The translations under genes were made by a program, and so were the position numbers. DNA of 14,709 nucleotides from the UHGV virus genome UHGV-0109417. One strand, written 5' to 3'. The stretch comes from a virus. Positions 1-14,165 of this stretch are shown here, in pieces. The notes beneath the pieces are model-generated. The model was not told the origin of the DNA, ran no database searches, and worked only from the letters and a program-made list of their open reading frames with translations. How positions within the stretch are numbered: position 1 is the first letter of the stretch; each line of letters starts with the position of its first letter.

Positions 1-40
1 GTCATCGGGCATTATCTGAACATAAAACACTATCAATAAG

Positions 41-259
41 TTGGAGTCATTACCGTTTTTTGGCCCCTTCTATGGTGGCTATAATGTAATCAAACTGGAT
101 GATGAGTATAAGTATGCTCTTGTCAGTGGTCCGAACAGAGAATACCTATGGATTCTGGCAAGGACCCCAACTATTCCAGATAAAGTAAAAGCAGACTATG
201 TGCGAACCGCTCAAAAGTTGGGATTCAATGTCAATGAATTATTATGGGTTAAACAATAA
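41..259 (+). pseudogene. Blc-like bacterial lipocalin, C-terminal fragment of about 70 codons; the N-terminal ~100 codons are absent
   Basis: Translation (SLPFFGPFYGGYNVI...YLWILARTPTI...) matches the C-terminal third of lipocalin Blc from memory. In-frame stop at 23-25 and no lipocalin-like sequence in any frame of 1-40. First in-frame start is TTG with no SD. Confidence 0.55.
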
Positions 260-285
260 AATCCCTACCCGAAATAATACTTATT

Positions 286-314
286 AGAAAAAAACCAGCC
301 TTTGGGGAGGCTGG
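286..314 (-). terminator. Intrinsic terminator (tR'-like) downstream of Q
   Basis: Perfect 7-bp stem CCAGCCT/AGGCTGG (295-301/308-314) with 6-nt loop, followed on the minus strand by a 7-8 nt T-run. Confidence 0.6.
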
Positions 315-414
315 CTAAATCAGGAAACAAGCTGTTATATGATAATAACTACGTTGCGATTCCAACATTTAAAATGTTAGACTAATGACAATCAGACAGC
401 AACTTTTCCTTTAA
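315..414 (-). promoter_or_regulatory. Putative Q-dependent late promoter (PR'/qut-like) region
   Basis: About 100-bp AT-rich spacer between the Q stop and the tR'-like terminator, with sigma70-like hexamers on the minus strand; position matches lambda PR'-qut-tR'. Exact hexamers not resolved. Confidence 0.4.
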
Positions 415-792
415 TTATTTCGAACAATCAGCATCCATCTCCAATCGGAGAACCAACACCATCAGCATACCCTCCACTACGCCCTCAGCTTTCTGAAGCA
501 TCCTGCCAACCCAACAATCAGATCGCCCATGCTTACGTGCAAGCGCCATAAAAGTCATGCCGCCGACATAATAGTCCACCAATAAATCATGCAAATCGCT
601 GTTGTTCTTTTTCAGACGGGCCATGCACCCGCAAATGATCATCGCGTCATCGTCACAACATTGTGGGCGAGATTTTACTTTTGAAGGAATTAATCCCTTA
701 AAACCGGCGGCAATGGACGACCAGGTCACATCTTCATGATTATTAGCCGCCCACGCTCCCCAACGCTCAAGAACCATCTGAATATCACGCAT
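415..792 (-). CDS. Q: Late-gene antiterminator Q (short DLP12 QuuD-type)
   Basis: ORF reads [24 protein letters not shown]..., recognised as the QuuD/Q antiterminator family. ATG at 792 is preceded by GGAG; the track's start at 807 is TTG. Lies downstream of the nin region as in lambdoid phages. Confidence 0.85.
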
Positions 793-859
793 CAACTTAC
801 TCCACAAAACTCAGACCAGAACGCCAATTACAAGCAAAAATCAACAAAACAGTATTAGT

Positions 860-1000
860 TGATTGTTATCTCTGACTTCATACTCCTGCTCCTGTCAGTG
901 TTTTGGCGTAATTCTTCAGTATTCGGTAATCGGTCAAAACAGAACCGGGGAAACGATATAAGCGCAGACGCCCCCAGCGGTGGCGAAGAAGTTCTGCCAT
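860..1000 (-). CDS. ylcG: Small protein YlcG-like (46 aa)
   Basis: Hand translation of the minus strand from ATG at 1000 gives MAELLRHRWGRLRLYRFPGSVLTDYRILKNYAKTLTGAGV..., 46 aa. It sits between rusA and Q as ylcG does in DLP12. Below the ORF-track size cutoff. Confidence 0.5.
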
Positions 1001-1014
1001 ATTAAACTCAAACA

Positions 1015-1377
1015 TCATTCATTCCCCATTTCGGTGATGGTCAGTTCCAGCCTCCCACCTTTGGTAACAGGCATCTTCACAACGCGGTAATCAACGACCT
1101 GAGCATCATCCAGCCAGAAACCTGCTTTAGTGAGTGCGTCAAAAGCGGCTTTTTGCAGATTATCCAGGTCACGGCGACGGCGATCCGGCATGTGGCACTC
1201 AATGCGGATTTTCACAGGCATAGCCAGACCGATATCCAGCATTGCGTTTTTAATGATTCGGGCGACGTTATCGCGGTATGCCTGCCCCTCTGCGCTGATG
1301 TGCGTGCGTCCGCGATTATGGCGGTAATAGCGATTATTGCTCGGAGGCCAGGGTAATGTGATGCTGTAGGTATTCAC
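1015..1377 (-). CDS. rusA: Holliday-junction resolvase RusA
   Basis: 120-aa [29 protein letters not shown]... matches RusA essentially end to end from memory. GTG start overlaps the ybcO stop (GTGA). Confidence 0.9.
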
Positions 1378-1664
1378 GCCTTAATAACCCCCTCTTTCAG
1401 CCAGATAACCTGTGTTCTCGCCATACCTTCCAGCGCGCATTCTTTTGCATATGCAGCATCGACAAAATGTGTGCGGCGGTCGATTTCGTCGTGGCAGGCA
1501 GAACATGCAATGGTGGCAATCAGGTCTGGCGGTTTGATACCGGTACCGCACAATCCAGCCAGCCGGATATGTGCCAGTACAGACGTCTCAGAATTGCCAT
1601 TACATACGCCAGGGATTCTTACCTGGCATTCCCGACCACGCGCTGCTTTTCTCAAATCAGCCAT
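1374..1664 (-). CDS. ybcO: YbcO-family (DUF1364) putative nuclease
   Basis: [23 protein letters not shown]... with conserved Cys/His cluster. ATG at 1664 is preceded by AAGGAGG; the longer track ORF from 1703 has no better start. Overlaps ninE stop and rusA start. Confidence 0.8.
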
Positions 1665-1827
1665 GATTCCTCCTTGCTGCCAGTCGCAACCATTTTTTAT
1701 CAACCAGGCTAGCGGTATATCCGAGCAGTGTTGGTATTTCGGATGGCTTCAGCTCAGGCTTACGCTTACGACGATTTGATACTCTGTAGATGTGTCCGTT
1801 CATGACACGAATAAGCGGTGTAGCCAT
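1657..1827 (-). CDS. ninE: NinE-like protein (56 aa)
   Basis: Hand translation [56 protein letters not shown]. Start ATG overlaps the ybcN stop (TAATG) and the stop overlaps the ybcO start. Resembles NinE in the YTA.L...WLR motif. Not in the ORF track. Confidence 0.65.
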   Translation of the reverse strand: MATPLIRVMNGHIYRVSNRRKRKPELKPSEIPTLLGYTASLVDKKWLRLAARRNHG

Positions 1828-2282
1828 TACGCCTCCTGCTTGTCGCGGAGCAGCTGGAACTCGCAGCTCTGCGGAATAGTCAGGTGGCAGCCAATATTCA
1901 TCGCCCAGGCTTCAACCTTACACAGGAAGACATACATCTCTCCGGTATCAAGATTGGAGGTATGACGTAATGACTGAATGGTGGTGATTTCACCGGTTAC
2001 GACATCAACCAGTTCTTTGGTTTCATAACCGAGATAAGTGTGTTTGAGAGCATCTTTTACCCAAGCTGGAGTGGCGAACGTTTTACCCCTGCTGATGAGG
2101 TATTCACTGATTTCGCTGTACCACATGTGGCTGAGTGCATTCTGGGAAAGACTGCGTCTCTCGCGCCACGGTTTAAGCACCATGCGAAAGCATTTGCCGT
2201 CCTCCAGATAAGGCTGGATCTGCCGACCGATAGCGGTGAAGTTACCGCGATGCAATTTGATACCATCTTGTGGGAGGTTCAC
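1827..2282 (-). CDS. ybcN: YbcN-type (NinB-position) recombination/base-flipping protein
   Basis: 151-aa [24 protein letters not shown]... recognised as DLP12 YbcN-like. GTG start is preceded by GGAGG with a 6-nt spacer. Confidence 0.75.
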
Positions 2283-2488
2283 GCTTCACCTCCGCAGAGA
2301 TCAAACGCTGGATGCAAAATATCGCAGGTGCATTTCTGCATCTGTGAATGGAGAAGAGAGGTTGGATTGTATGTGCGCATAAACGTCCCCGTTTAGCGCA
2401 GAAGTCACCGAAGTTGTTCAGGCTCCGATTACTTAATTATGGCAAGTTGATTATCGCAAATCAAAGGTTTTAATTGTGCTTTATTCTT

Positions 2489-2689
2489 TCAAGCGTTTCC
2501 TTCATACCAAAGCCTATAAAGTTTTTCTTCTTCGTTTGGGTTAATAGGCTCACCATGTTTTAATTTTTCAGTGTACAAAATTGTTGAACAAATCGCGGAA
2601 GTTAATCCAGTGATCGCCATCTGCCGCAGATCGGATTTTTGTGTCCCCCTCAACAGACGATCTCCCATCCATGTAATAATTGTATCCAT
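2489..2689 (-). CDS. Hypothetical small protein (66 aa), first gene of the moron
   Basis: ORF with ATG at 2689 preceded by AAGAAGGG. AT-rich compared with the flanking phage genes. No homology recognised. Confidence 0.4.
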   Translation of the reverse strand: MDTIITWMGDRLLRGTQKSDLRQMAITGLTSAICSTILYTEKLKHGEPINPNEEEKLYRLWYEGNA

Positions 2690-3275
2690 GCTTCAGCCCT
2701 TCTTAGTAAATAGTGTGTAGGGCGACTGAAGGACCGAGTTTATGCTTTTTCGCATTGCTTTCAGTTAGTAGACCGGTATAGCACCGGAAACAATCCTACG
2801 GCAAATTGGTTGTCTGACCTCTCGGTTTTTCGTGCATTAACCGATACCCACTACAGTCTCGGCGAAAGCTGCACACCCCCAAGGTGTACTGGTAGCACTC
2901 GGCACAGCCTAGCGCGCCACTTTCTTCTCACTATCCAGTCTAATTTTATCCCCTAGTCAGACACTCAGATGTAGTGCTCAGCAGCGGCATGCGGGGGAAT
3001 ACAAAAACTCGGACAAAATTGGGCCCTCCTTTTTGAATCACTCGCGGGGATGTAGTTATTAATACATGGGAAAAGATCTGTTTTCAAATCCAACATTATA
3101 TGGTTTCAATACCACGGGGTGGCTATGTGTTTCTCATTATTATTTACAATCTACTGTAATCGCTCCGAACGCAAATGCGTCAATACTCGAATCAACTGAT
3201 CATCCTGCCACGACTGAAATCTCAAATAGGCCGTTTCTCAAGTAAGAGATTTTGAATGCATTATTGGCTACTGAA
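2690..3275. other. About 590-bp non-coding stretch inside the moron; candidate ncRNA or regulatory region
   Basis: No ORF of 60 aa or more on either strand, and hand scanning of the minus strand found only peptides of 14 aa or fewer. Bounded by the terminator at 3276-3300. Contains a plus-strand sigma70-like promoter (TTGAAT-18-TATTAA near 3036-3065). Confidence 0.3.
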
Positions 3276-3300
3276 ATAAAAAACCCAGCGCAAACTGGGT
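3276..3300 (-). terminator. Intrinsic terminator after the secreted-protein gene
   Basis: Stem ACCCAG/CTGGGT (3283-3288/3295-3300) with loop CGCAAA, followed on the minus strand by TTTTTATTT. A T-run on the plus side lies 10 nt away, so it is possibly bidirectional. Confidence 0.65.
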
Positions 3301-3318
3301 TCATATGAAATTTTTTTG

Positions 3319-3813
3319 TCATTTCCAATTGCAAGACTGTGAAATTTTTTCCACAACCTTATCAATCTCAGACAAGTCAAACTCAACTACTTGCATAGTT
3401 GATCCATAAGGTTCAAACCCAAAAATAGCTTTTTTATGCTTAGCCAAGGTCTTTATAAATTGTATTGGTTGTGGAGCAAATGCAGAATCACCGCCTTCCC
3501 CACCTCCCCAAACACTCTTGACCGGCTTTCCGCCATCTAACCGCACTGTAATTCTTGGGTTGTCCGAACCCATATAATCATTGAATGATAAATAGGCATC
3601 TGTTTTGTTATCACTACAACGCAACACCAGTGAAGTTGCACGATCAGTACCTGCTTTGTTATATGAATCTGGTGATAAATTAAGAGCCACAAAGTCAGTC
3701 TGGTCAGTCATTTTATTTATCTCAGACTTTGTTATCCACGGCCCTAACTTCTCTACACCAGCATTTGCTGTAAACGAGGCACTTATAACAAAGGCTAAAA
3801 TAAATTTTCTCAT
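3319..3813 (-). CDS. Secreted/periplasmic protein of unknown function (164 aa, Sec signal peptide, two Cys)
   Basis: N-terminus MRKFILAFVISASFTANA-GVEK is a typical signal peptide with an AXA cleavage site. AAGGAG RBS 8 nt upstream of the ATG. AT-rich. Own terminator. Confidence 0.75.
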   Translation of the reverse strand: MRKFILAFVISASFTANAGVEKLGPWITKSEINKMTDQTDFVALNLSPDSYNKAGTDRATSLVLRCSDNKTDAYLSFNDYMGSDNPRITVRLDGGKPVKSVWGGGEGGDSAFAPQPIQFIKTLAKHKKAIFGFEPYGSTMQVVEFDLSEIDKVVEKISQSCNWK

Positions 3814-3959
3814 AACCCTATCTCCTTGGATTCAAAGAACTAAATATTATCAAGTCTCTTGCCACTAGAAAACCCACTTTATTTCCAAACTCTGATGGCA
3901 TTCCTGAAAATCCGCTTCATACTCACTTGCCCCGCCCTATCATCCTGAGTAGCTAACCG

Positions 3960-4133
3960 TTAAACAAACGTTCGCCAGACCTTACCATCAATGACCAGGA
4001 TTCCTGCCCGCGTCATTTTTGCCGCAGCCTTATTTATGCTGGTTAATGTCACACCTGTTGTCGCAGCAACGTCCGGCGCACAGAAGCTCTTGTGCGTCTC
4101 CAGATAATGAATAATTGCCTCTTTGCCCGTCAT
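3960..4133 (-). pseudogene. ren: Truncated ren (57 codons; lambda Ren is about 96 aa)
   Basis: Hand translation MTGKEAIIHYLETHKSFCAPDVAATTGVTLTSINKAAAKMTRAGILVIDGKVWRTFV* matches the N-terminal half of lambda Ren, then diverges and stops. ATGA overlap with the P stop. Confidence 0.65.
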
Positions 4134-4831
4134 ACAGTTGCTCCTTTCAGTCCGAACTTCGCTTTGATTTCTGCGATCTTCGCCAGAGCCTGAGCCCGGT
4201 TAAGTGGTCTACCGCCCATGACAGGAAGTTGTTTTACTGGTTCAGGTATAGCCTCACCACGGTTAATTCGTGCGGTCATACAGGACAGTTCATCGGCAGC
4301 CTTGCGCCGTAATTCCGCGTCAGTCAACGCATTGGCCCGCATGTTCTGATACAGGTTGGTAACCAGCCAGTAGTGCGCGTTTGATTTCCACGGATAAGAC
4401 TCTGCATCCGGATACAGCCCGCGCTTCCGGCAATACTCGTAAACCATATCAACCAGCTCGCTGGCGTTTGGCAGCCCGGCGGTAACGGATGCTTCTTCCC
4501 GGCACCAGGCGACAAACTGCCCGGGTGATGGCAGGAATGGTCGATTCTGCCGACGGGCTACGCGCATTCCAGCGTTAACCTGTTCCATTGTGGTGATCCC
4601 GTTTTCCCGAAAAGCCAGCACCCACTGGCGGCGGATTTCGTTCAGTTCATTCTGGTCACGGTTAGCCAGGCTCGCCGGGAAAGTTGCCAGTAACTGGCTG
4701 AACACACCGTTGATGATCTGCGCTACCTGCTGTACCTGCGGCTTTTCGTCGTACTGTTCCGGCATGTTGTTGGCGATCCGACGCATCTGCTCACGGTCAA
4801 AGTTAACCATCTGTGCGGCGATGTTTTTCAT
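4130..4831 (-). CDS. P: Replication protein P (DnaB helicase loader), near-identical to lambda P
   Basis: 233-aa ORF MKNIAAQMVNFDREQMRRIANNMPEQYDEK... matches lambda P along its whole length from memory. Confidence 0.92.
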   Translation of the reverse strand: MKNIAAQMVNFDREQMRRIANNMPEQYDEKPQVQQVAQIINGVFSQLLATFPASLANRDQNELNEIRRQWVLAFRENGITTMEQVNAGMRVARRQNRPFLPSPGQFVAWCREEASVTAGLPNASELVDMVYEYCRKRGLYPDAESYPWKSNAHYWLVTNLYQNMRANALTDAELRRKAADELSCMTARINRGEAIPEPVKQLPVMGGRPLNRAQALAKIAEIKAKFGLKGATV

Positions 4832-5757
4832 AAATCCACCCCGTAAATCCAGTCAGTGTTTGTCAGGTCGAGTTTTGGTTTGCTGGCTATCATGCCTGCC
4901 TGTTGCTTGTTACGGTTGATTTCGAGTTGGGTCCACTTGTCGCGGAGTTTGGCCGGACTTAGCACGTTACCGGACCAGAAGTTGTCCTGGCATGCCCAGC
5001 GGAAAAGCACGCACATGTCGCGGTGGTTACGTCCGTCACGTTCACGCATCAGGCGGATATCGTTAGCCCACCCTGCAAAATTCGGTTTTCTGGCTGATGG
5101 TGCGATGGTCTTCACCATGTCAAACATCCACTCTGCGGCGGTCAGGTCTTCTGCTGTCCCCCACTTGCTGCCGCTCTGAATTGCAGCATCTGGTTTCACC
5201 ACAGGAAGATCGTTTTCTGGTTGGTCAGAGGATTCGCCAGAATTCTCGGACGAAAAAGGTTTTATATTGTCTTTTGTTAGTTTGTCTTTTGTGTTTACCT
5301 GATTCGGGTAAACGCCTTTACCTGATTTGGGTAAACTTTTCTTACCTGATTCAGGTAAATTTACCTCTTTCAGGTAAACTTTATTTTCGTTACCTGATTT
5401 GGGTAATTTCACCCATTCGCTGACCGCTTTGTTAATCCCCACAGTTCTCCCGATTTGGGTAAATACCCCGCGCTTAACTAACGCGCTTTTAGCAGCAGAG
5501 CATTTGTGTGGGAGGATGCCGGTCAGGGCAGATAACTGATCATTGCTTACCCAGTCTGCCTTTTTGTTGAAACCGTATGTTTTGCGCATTACTGCCATGA
5601 AGACCAGCAGCTGATGCTGAGACAATCCAGCCAGCATGACAGCCTCCAGAAGTTCATTGGCGATGCGCGTATAGCCATCATCAAGATCTGCCACGCGCGG
5701 CTCCTTAGGTGCCACGTCAGGCACAGGGAAATTGATTACTTCGGCAGTGTTTGCCAT
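4828..5757 (-). CDS. O: Replication initiator O (lambda-type C-terminal domain, divergent N-terminal iteron-binding domain)
   Basis: 309-aa ORF. The C-terminal ~130 aa (...TAAEWMFDMVKTIAPSARKPNFAGWANDIRLMRER...DWIYGVDL) match lambda O; the N-terminal domain is related but divergent. Iterons lie inside the gene. AGGAG RBS. Confidence 0.9.
   Translation of the reverse strand: MANTAEVINFPVPDVAPKEPRVADLDDGYTRIANELLEAVMLAGLSQHQLLVFMAVMRKTYGFNKKADWVSNDQLSALTGILPHKCSAAKSALVKRGVFTQIGRTVGINKAVSEWVKLPKSGNENKVYLKEVNLPESGKKSLPKSGKGVYPNQVNTKDKLTKDNIKPFSSENSGESSDQPENDLPVVKPDAAIQSGSKWGTAEDLTAAEWMFDMVKTIAPSARKPNFAGWANDIRLMRERDGRNHRDMCVLFRWACQDNFWSGNVLSPAKLRDKWTQLEINRNKQQAGMIASKPKLDLTNTDWIYGVDL
5253..5407. 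repeat. Replication origin: five 18-bp iterons plus adjacent AT-rich region
   Basis: Iterons TTACCTGATTCGGGTAAA (5295), TTACCTGATTTGGGTAAA (5318), TTACCTGATTCAGGTAAA (5342), TTACCTCTTTCAGGTAAA (5361) and TTACCTGATTTGGGTAAT (5390), each internally palindromic. AT-rich run at 5253-5293. Same layout as lambda ori inside O. Confidence 0.8.
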
Positions 5758-5828
5758 AATTGCTCCTGTGAATTGATCCAGTTAATTCCACCTGAAAGCC
5801 GTTGGTGTTCCAGCACCGCGGCTTTTGC
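5732..5828 (+). ncRNA. oop-like antisense RNA: Po-like promoter plus about 60-nt transcript ending at an intrinsic terminator
   Basis: Plus-strand promoter TTGATT (5732-5737), 17-bp spacer, CATAAT (5755-5760). Downstream hairpin AAAGCCG...CGGCTTT (5795-5825) followed by TTTTGCCCTTT on the plus strand. The position antisense to the cII-O junction is that of lambda oop. Confidence 0.5.
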
Positions 5829-5839
5829 CCTTTCTGCGT

Positions 5840-6061
5840 TCATGCTTCAAAATCTCCCTTCACTCCATCCCTGCTAGAAATCAGGATGGCGAGCAGCAGC
5901 GACATGTTCGGCACCAGGTTCTCCCGCCACCGGCTTACGGTTGATTTGTTCACGCCAGCTACTTCGGCGATCCTGGTTGTCCCAAGATCTGCGATTTGCC
6001 GCTGCACCCAGCTCTCAATTCGTCGTGCCTCCGCTTTGTTGCGTGTCGTTAAGGTCTCCAT
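5840..6061 (-). CDS. cII: CII-like transcriptional activator
   Basis: 73-aa ORF with HTH GTTRIAEVAGVNKSTVSRW and ...SLLLAIL..., resembling lambda CII. GAGGAA RBS. Sits between cro and O. Confidence 0.75.
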   Translation of the reverse strand: METLTTRNKAEARRIESWVQRQIADLGTTRIAEVAGVNKSTVSRWRENLVPNMSLLLAILISSRDGVKGDFEA

Positions 6062-6093
6062 TTGCGATAATTCCTCTGATTTAATTGGTTATG

Positions 6094-6110
6094 GCCGCCG
6101 GTCAGGCGGC
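6094..6110 (-). terminator. tR1-like hairpin between cro and cII
   Basis: Perfect 6-bp GC stem GCCGCC/GGCGGC with 5-nt loop overlapping the cro stop. No U-tract, so possibly a rho-dependent or attenuating site. Confidence 0.3.
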
Positions 6111-6347
6111 ATGTGAATCTTGTTTAATTCGGTCAGGGTTAGCTGCTTGACGGAGCCATTCAGCCGTAAACTGCCCATTTGATGCGTCAGCCAAAAGCTG
6201 CGAATAGTTGGTTTTCTCTGTGTACTCAGTACGAGGCAGCGCCGCGTTCTTCACCCACTTGTGAATAGCAACGTTCGATAGGCCACACAGGCGAGCAGCA
6301 GCGGTTTGACCGCCTACAGCTTCGATTGCAAATTGCATTGGGTTCAT
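6102..6347 (-). CDS. cro: Cro-like repressor (Cro/YdaS-type HTH)
   Basis: 81-aa ORF with motif AIEAVGGQTAAARLCGLSNVAIHKW. Divergent from cI across the operator region. Confidence 0.75.
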   Translation of the reverse strand: MNPMQFAIEAVGGQTAAARLCGLSNVAIHKWVKNAALPRTEYTEKTNYSQLLADASNGQFTAEWLRQAANPDRIKQDSHAA

Positions 6348-6431
6348 AGTGTTTTCCGTTAACTATATTAACTACGAGTTAAGGTTATATCTTAACTGAC
6401 AGTTATGTCAACTCTAATTGATAATTAACGA
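6348..6431. promoter_or_regulatory. OR operator / PR-PRM divergent promoter region
   Basis: 84-bp region between divergent cro and cI. Contains the perfect inverted repeat AGTTAAG-N7-CTTAACT (6377-6397) and further TTAAC-containing half-sites. Confidence 0.7.
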
Positions 6432-7208
6432 ATGGTTAAAAAAGACGATTTAAAAGAAGAATTCTCGAAAAGACTTCGCGCTGCATTGCTTGATGCTGGC
6501 GTTGGTGGTCGTGGGCAGGCTGGTAGGATCAGAGAGGCTATGAAGTCCCAAGGAATTACTGTATCTGAGCCCGGGATCTGGAAATGGCTTAACGCATCAG
6601 CGATACCAGACCAAACCAATATCCTTGCCCTTAGCCGCTGGCTTGGGGTACGGCCTGAGTGGCTTGAATACGGAAGGAATGATCCCGAACCTGAACTGCG
6701 TAGGGAGTCATCTATCCCTCCAGAATCTGAATGGGGAACTGTTGACGCCTGGGATAAAAACACACCGCTTCCTGCTGACGAGGTTGAAGTGCCGTTTCTT
6801 AAGGATATTGAATTTGCGTGTGGCGATGGACGCGTACACAGCGAAGATCACAATGGTTTTAAGCTCAGGTTCTCAAAGGCAACCCTCCGCCGCGTTGGAG
6901 CTAACACAGATGGGTCTGGCATCCTGTGTTTCCCTGCTACTGGCGACAGCATGGAACCTGTGATACCGGATGGTACGACTGTAGCCGTCGATACGAACAA
7001 CAAACGCATAGTTGATGGGAAACTGTATGCCATTGGTCAGACAGATGGCGGGAATGGTCAACTCAAGCGCATTAAACAGCTGTATCGTAAGCCAGGTGGG
7101 AAGCTGATCATCCGCAGCTACAACAATGAGGCCTACCCTGATGAAGAAGCTGACATTGATGATGTTGAGATAATCGGCCGCCTCTTCTGGTACTCGGTAT
7201 TGCTGTAG
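6432..7208 (+). CDS. cI: CI repressor (N-terminal HTH, C-terminal S24 LexA-like autopeptidase)
   Basis: 258-aa ORF with G-D-S-M serine motif and downstream Lys (KRIK) typical of S24 peptidases. Divergent from cro. Confidence 0.9.
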   Translation: MVKKDDLKEEFSKRLRAALLDAGVGGRGQAGRIREAMKSQGITVSEPGIWKWLNASAIPDQTNILALSRWLGVRPEWLEYGRNDPEPELRRESSIPPESEWGTVDAWDKNTPLPADEVEVPFLKDIEFACGDGRVHSEDHNGFKLRFSKATLRRVGANTDGSGILCFPATGDSMEPVIPDGTTVAVDTNNKRIVDGKLYAIGQTDGGNGQLKRIKQLYRKPGGKLIIRSYNNEAYPDEEADIDDVEIIGRLFWYSVLL

Positions 7209-7254
7209 CGGTGGCCTGATGAGACGTTTTGGTGAAAGCATATAAGGACTGGTG

Positions 7255-8121
7255 ATGGAAAACACTGGCTTACACGATGTTAATTTTTCACTTAGATATG
7301 ACGGTTTGGATGCTGAAAAGCATGAGATTGAACTTTCTTCGCTCGGTGAATCGCTAAAGGGATTTTCGAAGATATTAGCTACAGCTGGAACCTTCGCATT
7401 AACCCAAAAGTACTCGCGAAGCACCTCAACTCAAGAGGTTAAAATTTACGCTACCGAAGCTAGGGCCAATTGTTTTTCTCTTGATACTATCATGAATTTT
7501 ATCAGTCAGTCTCAATTGTTCTCAGGGTCTGCGGGGGCTATACTTGGCGCATTAGTGCCTTATATCTTCGCTAAAAACTCGCAGAAGAAAGAGGAAATGA
7601 AATACCTAAAAGAAGCACTTGAGAAGGCAATTGAGGCCCTCGGAAATAAAGATAAAGATACCATCTCAGGTCTAATCTCAGTGATTGACAAGATGGCTAG
7701 TGAGTTACGCCCATCAGTTAGACAGGCAGTTTCCCCCATCGGTACCACCTGTAATAAGATAAGCGTCACACCGGGGAATGGTTTCAAGCCTGCTGTAATT
7801 GATGAGCAAGATAAAGCAGTAATAGACCAGTTGGACGACGACGAAGTTCTTGGCTTAAGGGAGTATCGAATCTTCCTTACTGAATTCGACGCTCACCGAA
7901 TGACCGCTAAAGTCATTATAGAAGGTGATGATTCAGATAAGCGCATCTCAGCACAAATAAGCGATCCATCTGCTTCAAAGGCAGACAACCCGTATCTCAT
8001 TTCACTTAGTCGTTTTCTGTCAACGGGTCTAAGTCATGAGTCAGCGGTAAAAGTAACTGCCAAAGCAGCAGTTAGAAAAGGGGCTATTAGTAAACTTTTC
8101 ATAGTTGATATTGAGCTTTAA
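7255..8121 (+). CDS. Hypothetical protein (288 aa) in the rexAB-equivalent slot downstream of cI; candidate exclusion/defence gene
   Basis: ATG at 7255 with AAGGA RBS, 47 bp after the cI stop and on the same strand. Ends at a strong intrinsic terminator. AT-richer than cI. No similarity to RexA or RexB recognised and no obvious multi-pass TM segments. Confidence 0.8.
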
Positions 8122-8124
8122 CAA

Positions 8125-8147
8125 CCGGCCACCGCGCCGGGTTTTTT
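8125..8147 (+). terminator. Intrinsic terminator ending the cI operon
   Basis: Stem CCGGC/GCCGG (8125-8129/8136-8140) with loop CACCGC, followed by GTTTTTTG. Confidence 0.75.
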
Positions 8148-8151
8148 GTGC

Positions 8152-8370
8152 CTACTTCACAGCTTTACTACCCTTCCTGACTATCTCAGCTGCATCCCGT
8201 AGCATCCCCTTATGGATCACGTTTCCTACGGCTTTGCGCTTCCCTTCCAGAAATCCCACAATGTTGTCCTTATTGATTTCAATTCCGTTATAAACCAGCT
8301 CGAACACTACGCACCCAACCTCTCCAGCCATGAAGGCCATTCGTTCATCTGCACGTTCATCTCGTTCCAT
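8152..8370 (-). CDS. Hypothetical small protein (72 aa), convergent with the 288-aa gene
   Basis: ATG at 8370 preceded by a strong SD (CAGGAGG, 6-nt spacer); translation begins MERDERADERMAFMAGEVG.... Its upstream region overlaps OL. Confidence 0.5.
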   Translation of the reverse strand: MERDERADERMAFMAGEVGCVVFELVYNGIEINKDNIVGFLEGKRKAVGNVIHKGMLRDAAEIVRKGSKAVK

Positions 8371-10681: not shown

Positions 10682-11653
10682 ATGAGTGAAGCAACGGATT
10701 TAGTCGTCATAGAGAAGTCGAACGCGATGGCAGTCTTTACCAGCAAAGAGCAGCTCGACCCGCTTCTCGAGAAAATCGAGACAGAGGCCCGCAGCCTGGT
10801 ACCCGACCTGACCACTAAGAAAGGTCGCGACGCCATCGCATCAATGGCCCACAAGGTCGCCCGCTCGAAAACGTACATCGACAACGCCGGTAAAGACCTC
10901 GTTGCAGAGCTCAAGGCATTGCCCAAGCAGATCGACGAAAGCCGCCGAATTGTGCGTGAGCGACTCGACGCGCTGAAAGATGAAGTTCGCCGCCCGCTGA
11001 CCGAGTGGGAAGCCGAACAGGAGCGCATTAAAGCCGAAGAGGAAATGAATGCGTGGCATGCCGAAGCTCTGGAGATGAACGCAGAGTTCGATCGCCAACT
11101 GGCAGCACGACGCGAAGCAGACCACGAAATGGCTCTGCTGATGAATGACAAGTTTGACCGTGACCGCGAAGAGCAGCGCCGCCAGGCGGAACAGGCACAG
11201 CGTGAACGTGACGAGCGTCTGAAGCAGGAAGCGGCAGAACAAGCCCGCCGCGATGCCGAAGCGAAGCACAAAGCGGAGATTGAAGCCGCAGCACGCCGTG
11301 AAGCTGAAGAGAAAGCGCGTGCAGAGCTGGCAGAGCGCCAGCGCATCGAAACGGAGCAGCGTGCGGAACGCGAGAAGCAGGAAGCGGAAGCGCGGGCGGA
11401 ACGGGAAAAAGCCGCGGCAGTGGAAACTGAGCGCCTCAAGGCAAAACAGGCAGAAGAAGCCCGCCTGGCTGAAGAGAAGCGCATCGCCGACGAACAGGCT
11501 AAGCGCGAAGCTGACGTGAAGCACCGCAAGACGGTCGGCACCAACATCGTTAACGCGCTCACCAGCCACACCAGCTTAACTCGCGAACAGGCTATCGAAG
11601 TGCTCACCGCTCTGAAAGATGACCTGATCCCCTGCGCGAAAATTCATTACTGA
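10682..11653 (+). CDS. Hypothetical 323-aa protein with a long E/R/A/K/Q-rich charged helical central region
   Basis: Long ORF with ATG at 10682 directly upstream of gam-like/bet/exo. Central ~160 aa are low-complexity charged heptad-like repeats; the N- and C-terminal ~80 aa are ordinary. Confidence 0.8.
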   Translation: MSEATDLVVIEKSNAMAVFTSKEQLDPLLEKIETEARSLVPDLTTKKGRDAIASMAHKVARSKTYIDNAGKDLVAELKALPKQIDESRRIVRERLDALKDEVRRPLTEWEAEQERIKAEEEMNAWHAEALEMNAEFDRQLAARREADHEMALLMNDKFDRDREEQRRQAEQAQRERDERLKQEAAEQARRDAEAKHKAEIEAAARREAEEKARAELAERQRIETEQRAEREKQEAEARAEREKAAAVETERLKAKQAEEARLAEEKRIADEQAKREADVKHRKTVGTNIVNALTSHTSLTREQAIEVLTALKDDLIPCAKIHY

Positions 11654-13486: not shown

Positions 13487-13641
13487 AACATTACCGCGAC
13501 GCCATAACCGTAGGAAAAGTGAAGTGCATGTACTCCGTCCTTCATCGTGGCTGGCTAATGCCATCTGGTGAAGTGGTAAGAAACCCGTTAAAGGCTCAGC
13601 GGATGGCTGAAGAGCTGGCCACGAAAAGAGGTGCGCAATGA
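13483..13641 (+). CDS. Hypothetical small protein (52 aa) coupled between exo and the methyltransferase
   Basis: ATG overlaps the exo stop (ATGA) and its stop overlaps the methyltransferase start (ATGA). Not in the ORF track. Confidence 0.4.
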
Positions 13642-14165
13642 CTGATTATGGCGGATCGAAAACTCCAAAAAATGAACGTGACTACTGGCAAACACCGATT
13701 GAAATTTTCAACGCGCTCGACCGCGAGTTTGGCTTCTGGCTGGATGCTGCAGCCTCTGAGAGTAATGCGCTATGCGCTCACTATCTCACTGAGCTGGATG
13801 ACTCGCTGAACAGCGAATGGACGTCATGCGGCGCGATCTGGTGCAACCCACCCTATTCCGATATCGGCCCGTGGGTGGAAAAGGCTGCTGAGCAATCCCG
13901 GGCGCAGTCTCAGGCCGTAGTGATGCTGTTACCTGCTGACATCTCTACTGGCTGGTTTATTTCAGCCATGCAATCAGCTGATGAACTCAGACTCATAACC
14001 GGCGGCCGTGTTCAGTTTGTTCCGGCATCCGTTACAGGAAAGCGCCAGAGCAACCCTAAAGGCTCGCTCCTGTTTATCTGGCGCCCGTACATCACCCCGC
14101 GACACATCATCACGATCGTATCGCTGGCTGAGTTAAAGCGGATCGGGAATCTGGAGGCAGCATGA
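13638..14165 (+). CDS. Phage Dam-family DNA N6-adenine methyltransferase
   Basis: 175-aa ORF with WQTPIEIFNAL...FGF.LDAAAS...WCNPPYS; the NPPY motif and size fit the small phage Dam family. Confidence 0.85.
   Translation: MTDYGGSKTPKNERDYWQTPIEIFNALDREFGFWLDAAASESNALCAHYLTELDDSLNSEWTSCGAIWCNPPYSDIGPWVEKAAEQSRAQSQAVVMLLPADISTGWFISAMQSADELRLITGGRVQFVPASVTGKRQSNPKGSLLFIWRPYITPRHIITIVSLAELKRIGNLEAA

Follow-up and report, generated by a model that had tools for sequence, protein, structure and literature searches.

A Blc-type lipocalin gene cut by IS1 beside the late antiterminator gene of a lambda-like prophage, at a contig end

The left part of the virus genome UHGV-0109417 (14,709 nucleotides; this whole stretch of DNA is hereafter the window) carries the right end of an IS1 element, the 3' part of a Blc-like lipocalin gene, an intrinsic terminator and a gene for a late antiterminator of the Q21-type family (Table 1). 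An earlier sequence-only reading had placed the lipocalin fragment on the strand opposite Q, and this is indeed the arrangement, the two genes being convergent. The Q protein (WP_016246965.1, annotated in RefSeq as 'antiterminator Q family protein') shares its Pfam family with the Q protein of phage 21 and can be aligned to the structures of the latter (6p18 and 6jnx; E 1.7e-8 over residues 8-90), but it is a distant and shorter relative (125 versus 162 aa). The terminator hairpin downstream of Q has a predicted folding energy of -14.9 kcal/mol (z -3.6 against shuffled sequences) and is oriented to end transcription coming from Q; on the + strand it is followed by no T-run. The promoter PR' and the Q-loading site were located neither by a consensus scan nor by eye in the stretch from the Q stop codon to the terminator, which is more than 95% identical among relatives. 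The sigma-70 scan yielded a single threshold-level match (9/12; TGGAGA-18-AATAAT at 443..414), which overlaps the Q stop codon, and a weak candidate seen by eye is TTGCTG-17-TAACAT at 402..374. The 'PR'/tR'-like elements' claimed from sequence alone are thus borne out as far as tR' is concerned, while PR' amounts to a sigma-70 match at threshold level or below. The window contains no tRNA genes or Rfam families, and hence no tRNA cluster after Q of the kind seen in Stx phages.

Table 1. Positions of the features discussed in the text within the window
Feature	Position	Strand	Remarks
IS1 right end, last 54 bp	1..54	+	Cut at contig end; identical to annotated IS1A end
IS1 right inverted repeat, 23 bp	32-54		Reverse complement of GGTAATGACTCCAACTTATTGAT
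Mechanical 72-aa ORF	41..259	+	TTG start inside IS1 end, in-frame fusion to lipocalin remnant; not supported as a gene
IS1 target-site duplication, one copy, GTTTTTTG(G)	55..63	.	8-9 bp; also at both outer IS1 ends in 2EC1
blc-like lipocalin 3' remnant, phage-borne	56..259	+	Codons 108-174 and stop; pseudogene
tR'-like intrinsic terminator	286..316	-	Hairpin 316-293, 9-bp stem, 6-nt loop, then T7
Interval from Q stop codon to terminator	317..414	-	Expected place of PR' and Q-loading site
Late antiterminator Q, 125 aa, Q21-type family	415..792	-	PF06530, E 2e-50, profile positions 1-118/118
VasI/TagO-like protein, 164 aa, nin region	3319-3813	-
323-aa ORF upstream of GamL/RecT	10682-11653	+	No Pfam or PADLOC match
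Phage Dam methyltransferase	13638-14165	+	PF05869

The lipocalin gene is represented in the window by its 3' end. As the reference for the intact gene we used that of Escherichia coli H6 (L002 11682-12206; 525 nt, 174 aa), to which window positions 55-259 align at nt 321-525 without a mismatch over 205 nt. The breakpoint inside a Blc-like gene that had been noticed from the sequence alone is therefore real and falls at nt 321 of 525, and the estimate that a 'C-terminal third' remains was close, with 67 of 174 residues (38%) retained. The remnant matches the Pfam profile Lipocalin_2 (PF08212, E 2.2e-17) over its C-terminal part only (positions 83-146 of 146) and the NCBIfam Blc subfamily model NF007786 over positions 108-174, scoring 120 bits against a cut-off of 267 that the intact relative clears with 316. 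The intact protein further matches solved structures of E. coli Blc (3mbt, E 3.5e-69) and carries a signal peptide and lipobox, MKLWPVLTGIALSFTLIAC (…TLIAC, Cys19); both lie in residues 1-107, which are missing from the window. In frame 2 of the + strand the translation reads SSGII*T*NTINKLESLP, followed by FFGPFYGGYNVIKLDDEYKYALVSGPNREYLWILARTPTIPDKVKADYVRTAQKLGFNVNELLWVKQ* as the lipocalin part, with stops at 17-19 and 23-25. The in-frame stop and 'unrelated' upstream sequence reported earlier are thus confirmed, the unrelated sequence in positions 1-54 being the right end of IS1. The window copy is a non-functional pseudogene remnant and not a gene with an odd start.

The first 54 bases of the window are identical, base for base (54/54), to the IS1A copy of E. 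coli 2EC1, and the element ends ...GGAGTCATTACC at window base 54. Exact string checks showed that GGTAATGACTCCAACTTATTGAT bounds annotated IS1A copies opposite GGTGATGCTGCCAACTTACTGAT; the reference IS1A taken from the RefSeq annotation is 768 bp long and is bounded by IRL and IRR (L001 11287-12054). The underlying feature is annotated by RefSeq as an IS1A transposase. In the genomes that share the junction the element measures 768 bp and its IS1 transposase is frameshifted; the window holds 54 bp of the element. Immediately after IS1 the lipocalin gene resumes at nt 321, the third base of codon 107, with the sequence GTTTTTTG(G). This string occurs once in the intact H6 gene (nt 321-329), and at both outer IS1 ends in 2EC1 (L001 8805-8812/13 and 12055-12062/63); its ninth base is ambiguous, G being the first base of IS1 too. 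Of this duplication the right-hand copy is in the window, and the second copy was seen in relatives only. In a four-way alignment the window agrees with 2EC1 through IS1, the duplication and the gene, with the intact H6 gene continuous across the site. Because an IS1 end is joined to an 8-9 bp duplication that is single-copy in the intact gene, the junction is the product of IS1 transposition into the lipocalin gene. The sequence-only reading had called it a recombination junction; the breakpoint stands, and it is a transposition junction in place of a generic recombination joint. We found no evidence contradicting the IS1 junction.

The window as a whole is identical, base for base in reverse complement, to the ENA contig NODE_4017_length_14709_cov_6.05 of ERZ1304128. 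The assembly breaks at both ends, the right end cutting a gene; the left edge lies 54 bp inside IS1, and it is a contig end, with no prophage end visible. Contig coverage is low (about 6x). IS1 is a multicopy repeat: a 900-bp query starting at base 1 gave 75176 matches, spread over 5282 of the 5426 complete E. coli genomes (median 10 per genome). We infer that an assembly break inside this repeat produced the left edge, a place at which a de Bruijn assembler with k around 55 would usually stop.

In intact relatives the neighborhood has a consistent order, represented by E. coli H6: Q (- strand), lipocalin (+, 174 aa), a YbgA-family gene (-, DUF523/DUF1722), an AraC-like gene (-), and then the holin gene essD, the endolysin gene rrrD and Rz (-). 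The isolated phage IdasGreatGrand, whose lipocalin-Q region is 99.8% identical to that of H6, has the same order, and so do lambda phages from the infant gut (Lambda_ev087, 1H12 and others), which have the gene annotated as 'Lipocalin Blc'. Of 5426 complete E. coli genomes, 1168 have the lipocalin gene segment, and Mathieu et al. 2020 (PMC6969025) count blc among the morons that more than 50% of their lambda phages carry. The lysis genes come about 3 kb beyond the lipocalin. The lipocalin is accordingly the ordinary first neighbor of Q and no substitute for the lysis genes; the earlier statement that it stands 'instead of lysis genes' does not hold, and the further claim that the late region joins it directly goes beyond a window that ends 54 bp into IS1. 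The proposal that the Q-to-lysis interval is an accessory-gene site is upheld.

Compared with the blc moron of lambda-like coliphages (PMC6969025; Lambda_ev087, 1H12, IdasGreatGrand), the window holds the same gene (100% identity with H6 across the 205 nt that remain) in the same place past Q and tR' and on the opposite strand, but as a non-functional 3' remnant. The chromosomal Blc of E. coli (PDB 1qwd, 2aco, 3mbt) belongs to the same fold family and NCBIfam Blc subfamily, and the intact phage copy likewise has a lipobox (LIAC); unlike it, the phage lipocalin is a phage-borne paralogue, clearly diverged in the 3mbt alignment. The slot itself corresponds to the lambdoid accessory site between Q/tR' and the holin gene, which accommodates stx in Stx phages and nmpC in DLP12. 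In the relatives of the window it is filled by different cargo, namely the lipocalin, YbgA-family and AraC-like genes followed by DLP12-type essD and rrrD, with the lipocalin antisense to late transcription. Between tR' and the holin gene, the late operon of the relatives contains two further accessory genes: the YbgA-family product (L002 10530-11489) combines a 2-thiouracil-desulfurase-like domain (PF04463) with DUF1722, and the AraC-type regulator (L002 9449-10178) is frameshifted in several genomes.

A junction-specific query consisting of 25 nt of IS1 and 76 nt of the gene recovered full matches with 100% identity in 10 complete genomes, in which the junction has the same position and orientation as in the window and identity remains 100% over 900 bp. 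An IS1-corA-ysgD-IS1 segment lies at or near the junction in nine of these. The other half of the lipocalin gene is kept in seven of the ten and is lost in three. The inspection covered six of the ten genomes and further assemblies that carry the same Q protein. Two IS1 copies in inverted orientation interrupt the gene in 2EC1, YZB902, HE302, NCTC9080 and the assemblies L009 and L010, and between them lies a second copy, 1.7 kb long, of the chromosomal corA-ysgD region. The block in 2EC1 (L001 8813-12054) consists of two inverted 768-bp IS1 copies around corA-ysgD, and since the target duplication flanks all of it, the block looks like a composite IS1 element that was inserted as a unit. The corA gene in the block points the same way as Q-dependent late transcription. 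Past the block follow the 5' part of the lipocalin gene, YbgA, the AraC-like gene (which another IS1 interrupts in YZB902 and HE302), and then the holin, endolysin, Rz and terminase genes. Five of the six inspected genomes that keep the left half have lysis genes at a distance of a few kb. Four of these (2EC1, NCTC9080, YZB902 and HE302) have holin, endolysin and Rz, and the fifth, ET490, has holin and endolysin. The start of the holin gene in 2EC1 is 5.9 kb to the left of the first base of the window.

Other genomes with the junction are further rearranged. An inversion between IS1 copies has turned the left junction around in ET490 and ET670, and in ET979 that junction likewise lies on the opposite strand. 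An IS1-bounded inversion of the YbgA/AraC segment is visible in ET670 and ET490 (L012 and L013), with three IS1 copies in ET490, and in ET670 a portal gene comes directly after an IS1. The structures of ET490 and ET670 show further IS1-driven rearrangement of the same prophage. TC24 and the assemblies L005 and L006 (among the matches listed) share the identical junction, with the outer IS1 abutting the chromosomal ybhB-bioA, and therefore have the entire late region deleted; TC24 is the one genome inspected of the three complete genomes without the left half. The attB-lambda prophage of TC24 matches window positions 1-5836 at about 98% identity.

Taken together, these observations favor, in our view very strongly, an IS1-cut lipocalin moron of a lambda-like prophage on a contig broken inside IS1. 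The gene would have encoded a Blc-type outer-membrane lipocalin, placed past Q and tR' on the opposite strand and known as a lysogen-expressed moron. IS1 would have transposed into codon 107 and duplicated the 8-9 bp target GTTTTTTG(G), and of the product the window would keep the right-hand junction only, made up of the IS1 end, the duplication and the 3'-terminal 38% of the gene, the assembler having probably been unable to pass the multicopy IS1 and halted 54 bp in. Beyond the window one would usually expect an IS1, the second ysgD-corA copy and another IS1, and then either the lipocalin 5' part, the YbgA and AraC-like genes and those for lysis and heads, or the ybhB-bioA region of the chromosome. 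The latter state would have arisen by IS1-mediated deletion of the whole late region.

That the prophage is defective, with its entire late region of lysis, head and tail genes deleted and the Q side ending at the lipocalin stump, is a serious prospect to which we give somewhat less than an even chance. TC24, L005 and L006 provide precedents among the matches listed, sharing the junction and having the IS1-corA-IS1 block next to ybhB-bioA, and among the ten complete junction genomes three have lost the left half. Against this, the other seven keep the left half, and 2EC1, NCTC9080, YZB902, HE302 and ET490 have lysis genes. The window is mute either way: its left edge is a contig end inside IS1, because of which a late-region deletion is unreadable from it. 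The suggestion that the prophage 'may be defective' through such a deletion thus survives as a real possibility, exemplified by the TC24 state, but not as something that can be read from this DNA. It is in any case a sub-case of the IS1-cut moron explanation and not an alternative to the IS1 event. A simpler structure, in which the rest of the lipocalin gene follows directly behind one 768-bp IS1 with no corA block, does occur in 027_SK3 and ABW_S38. Their junction is, however, shifted by 1 bp (CGTTTTTTGG after IS1) and lies in a different prophage, whereas the junction of the window (IS1, then GTTTTTTGG) matches only the ten genomes above; moreover, the IS1 ends that flank the lipocalin halves are kilobases apart and not 768 bp in all six inspected genomes. 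A second corA copy is listed for four of six inspected genomes; by annotation it is present in YZB902 and TC24 and absent from ET670. A single simple insertion accordingly strikes us as quite improbable.

It is scarcely credible that the lipocalin is intact with an unusual start or that the junction is an assembly artefact. A 72-aa ORF can be drawn mechanically from a TTG at position 41, and the coverage of about 6x is low enough to raise the question of a chimera. This ORF, however, starts inside IS1 and lacks residues 1-107 with the signal peptide and Cys19, and its score stays below the Blc cut-off, which together rule out an intact gene. The same junction in ten independently finished, complete genomes likewise rules out an assembly chimera at this point.

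Common descent with the ten junction genomes would be the simplest reading of the shared breakpoint. The immunity region of the window differs from that of all ten, and independent insertion at the site is also possible, because IS1 has struck this spot at least twice. The other event is that of 027_SK3 (L027 3258-4025), where a single 768-bp IS1 sits with the 1-bp shift in a Qin-like prophage that differs from that of the window. The T-rich (A/T-rich) run thus appears to be a recurrent target, i.e. a hot spot, of IS1. In another set of genomes (L026, about 5290-6054) an IS1 precedes the start codon of the lipocalin gene by about 80 bp.

Elsewhere in the window, positions 5265-8226 share 97-99% identity with the immunity region of another lambdoid lineage, and this match overlaps the TC24-like match (1-5836) by about 570 bp, placing a mosaic joint at 5265-5836, in the N-terminal part of the O gene and cII. 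The whole-window search against complete E. coli genomes gave a coverage of at most 44%, and the prophages retrieved with the cI repressor were all unrelated lambdoid ones that have other Q types. The O protein of the window is carried by exactly one contig of the look-up collection, ERZ1304128 NODE_4017 itself. Because the O protein that results from the joint occurs on no other contig, the joint reflects either a natural recombination event of a rare kind or a switch from one prophage to another during metagenomic assembly. The window also encodes a 289-aa DUF7946/DUF7947 protein (7252-8121, + strand) right behind the cI repressor, where lambda has rexAB. It is weakly similar to PDC-S42, a candidate defence family (E 1e-5), and may be a prophage-encoded exclusion or defence gene.

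In relation to IS1 insertions and composite transposons of E. coli and Shigella, the locus is conventional in that the terminal sequence is identical to annotated IS1A and the 8-9 bp target duplication lies in an A/T-rich run. The relatives add two inverted IS1 copies around a captured chromosomal segment, as well as adjacent deletions and inversions anchored at IS1 copies. It departs from the usual picture in that the window holds 54 bp of the element and that the passenger in the relatives, corA-ysgD, is a housekeeping duplicate and not a resistance gene. A literature search for an IS1-corA composite transposon returned nothing relevant. This IS1-corA-ysgD-IS1 block is the mildly novel item, and it is located outside the window. 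By analogy with the relatives, one could imagine that a 3.2-kb IS1-corA-ysgD-IS1 block sits immediately to the left of the window, that its second corA lies along late transcription so that induction would drive extra expression of the Mg/Co transporter, and that its IS1 copies would seed deletions and inversions disabling an attB-lambda prophage; we offer this combined scenario as a speculation and consider it unlikely.

The feature is real but ordinary: an IS1-disrupted phage moron at a contig end, produced by a kind of event that is already known, and the window itself holds no new biology. It does provide a caution, in that a truncated-looking gene next to 'unrelated' sequence at a window edge can be an IS junction combined with an assembly break. 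Together with its relatives, it constitutes a small, well-documented example of IS1 repeatedly entering one A/T-rich accessory-gene site and then driving prophage decay.
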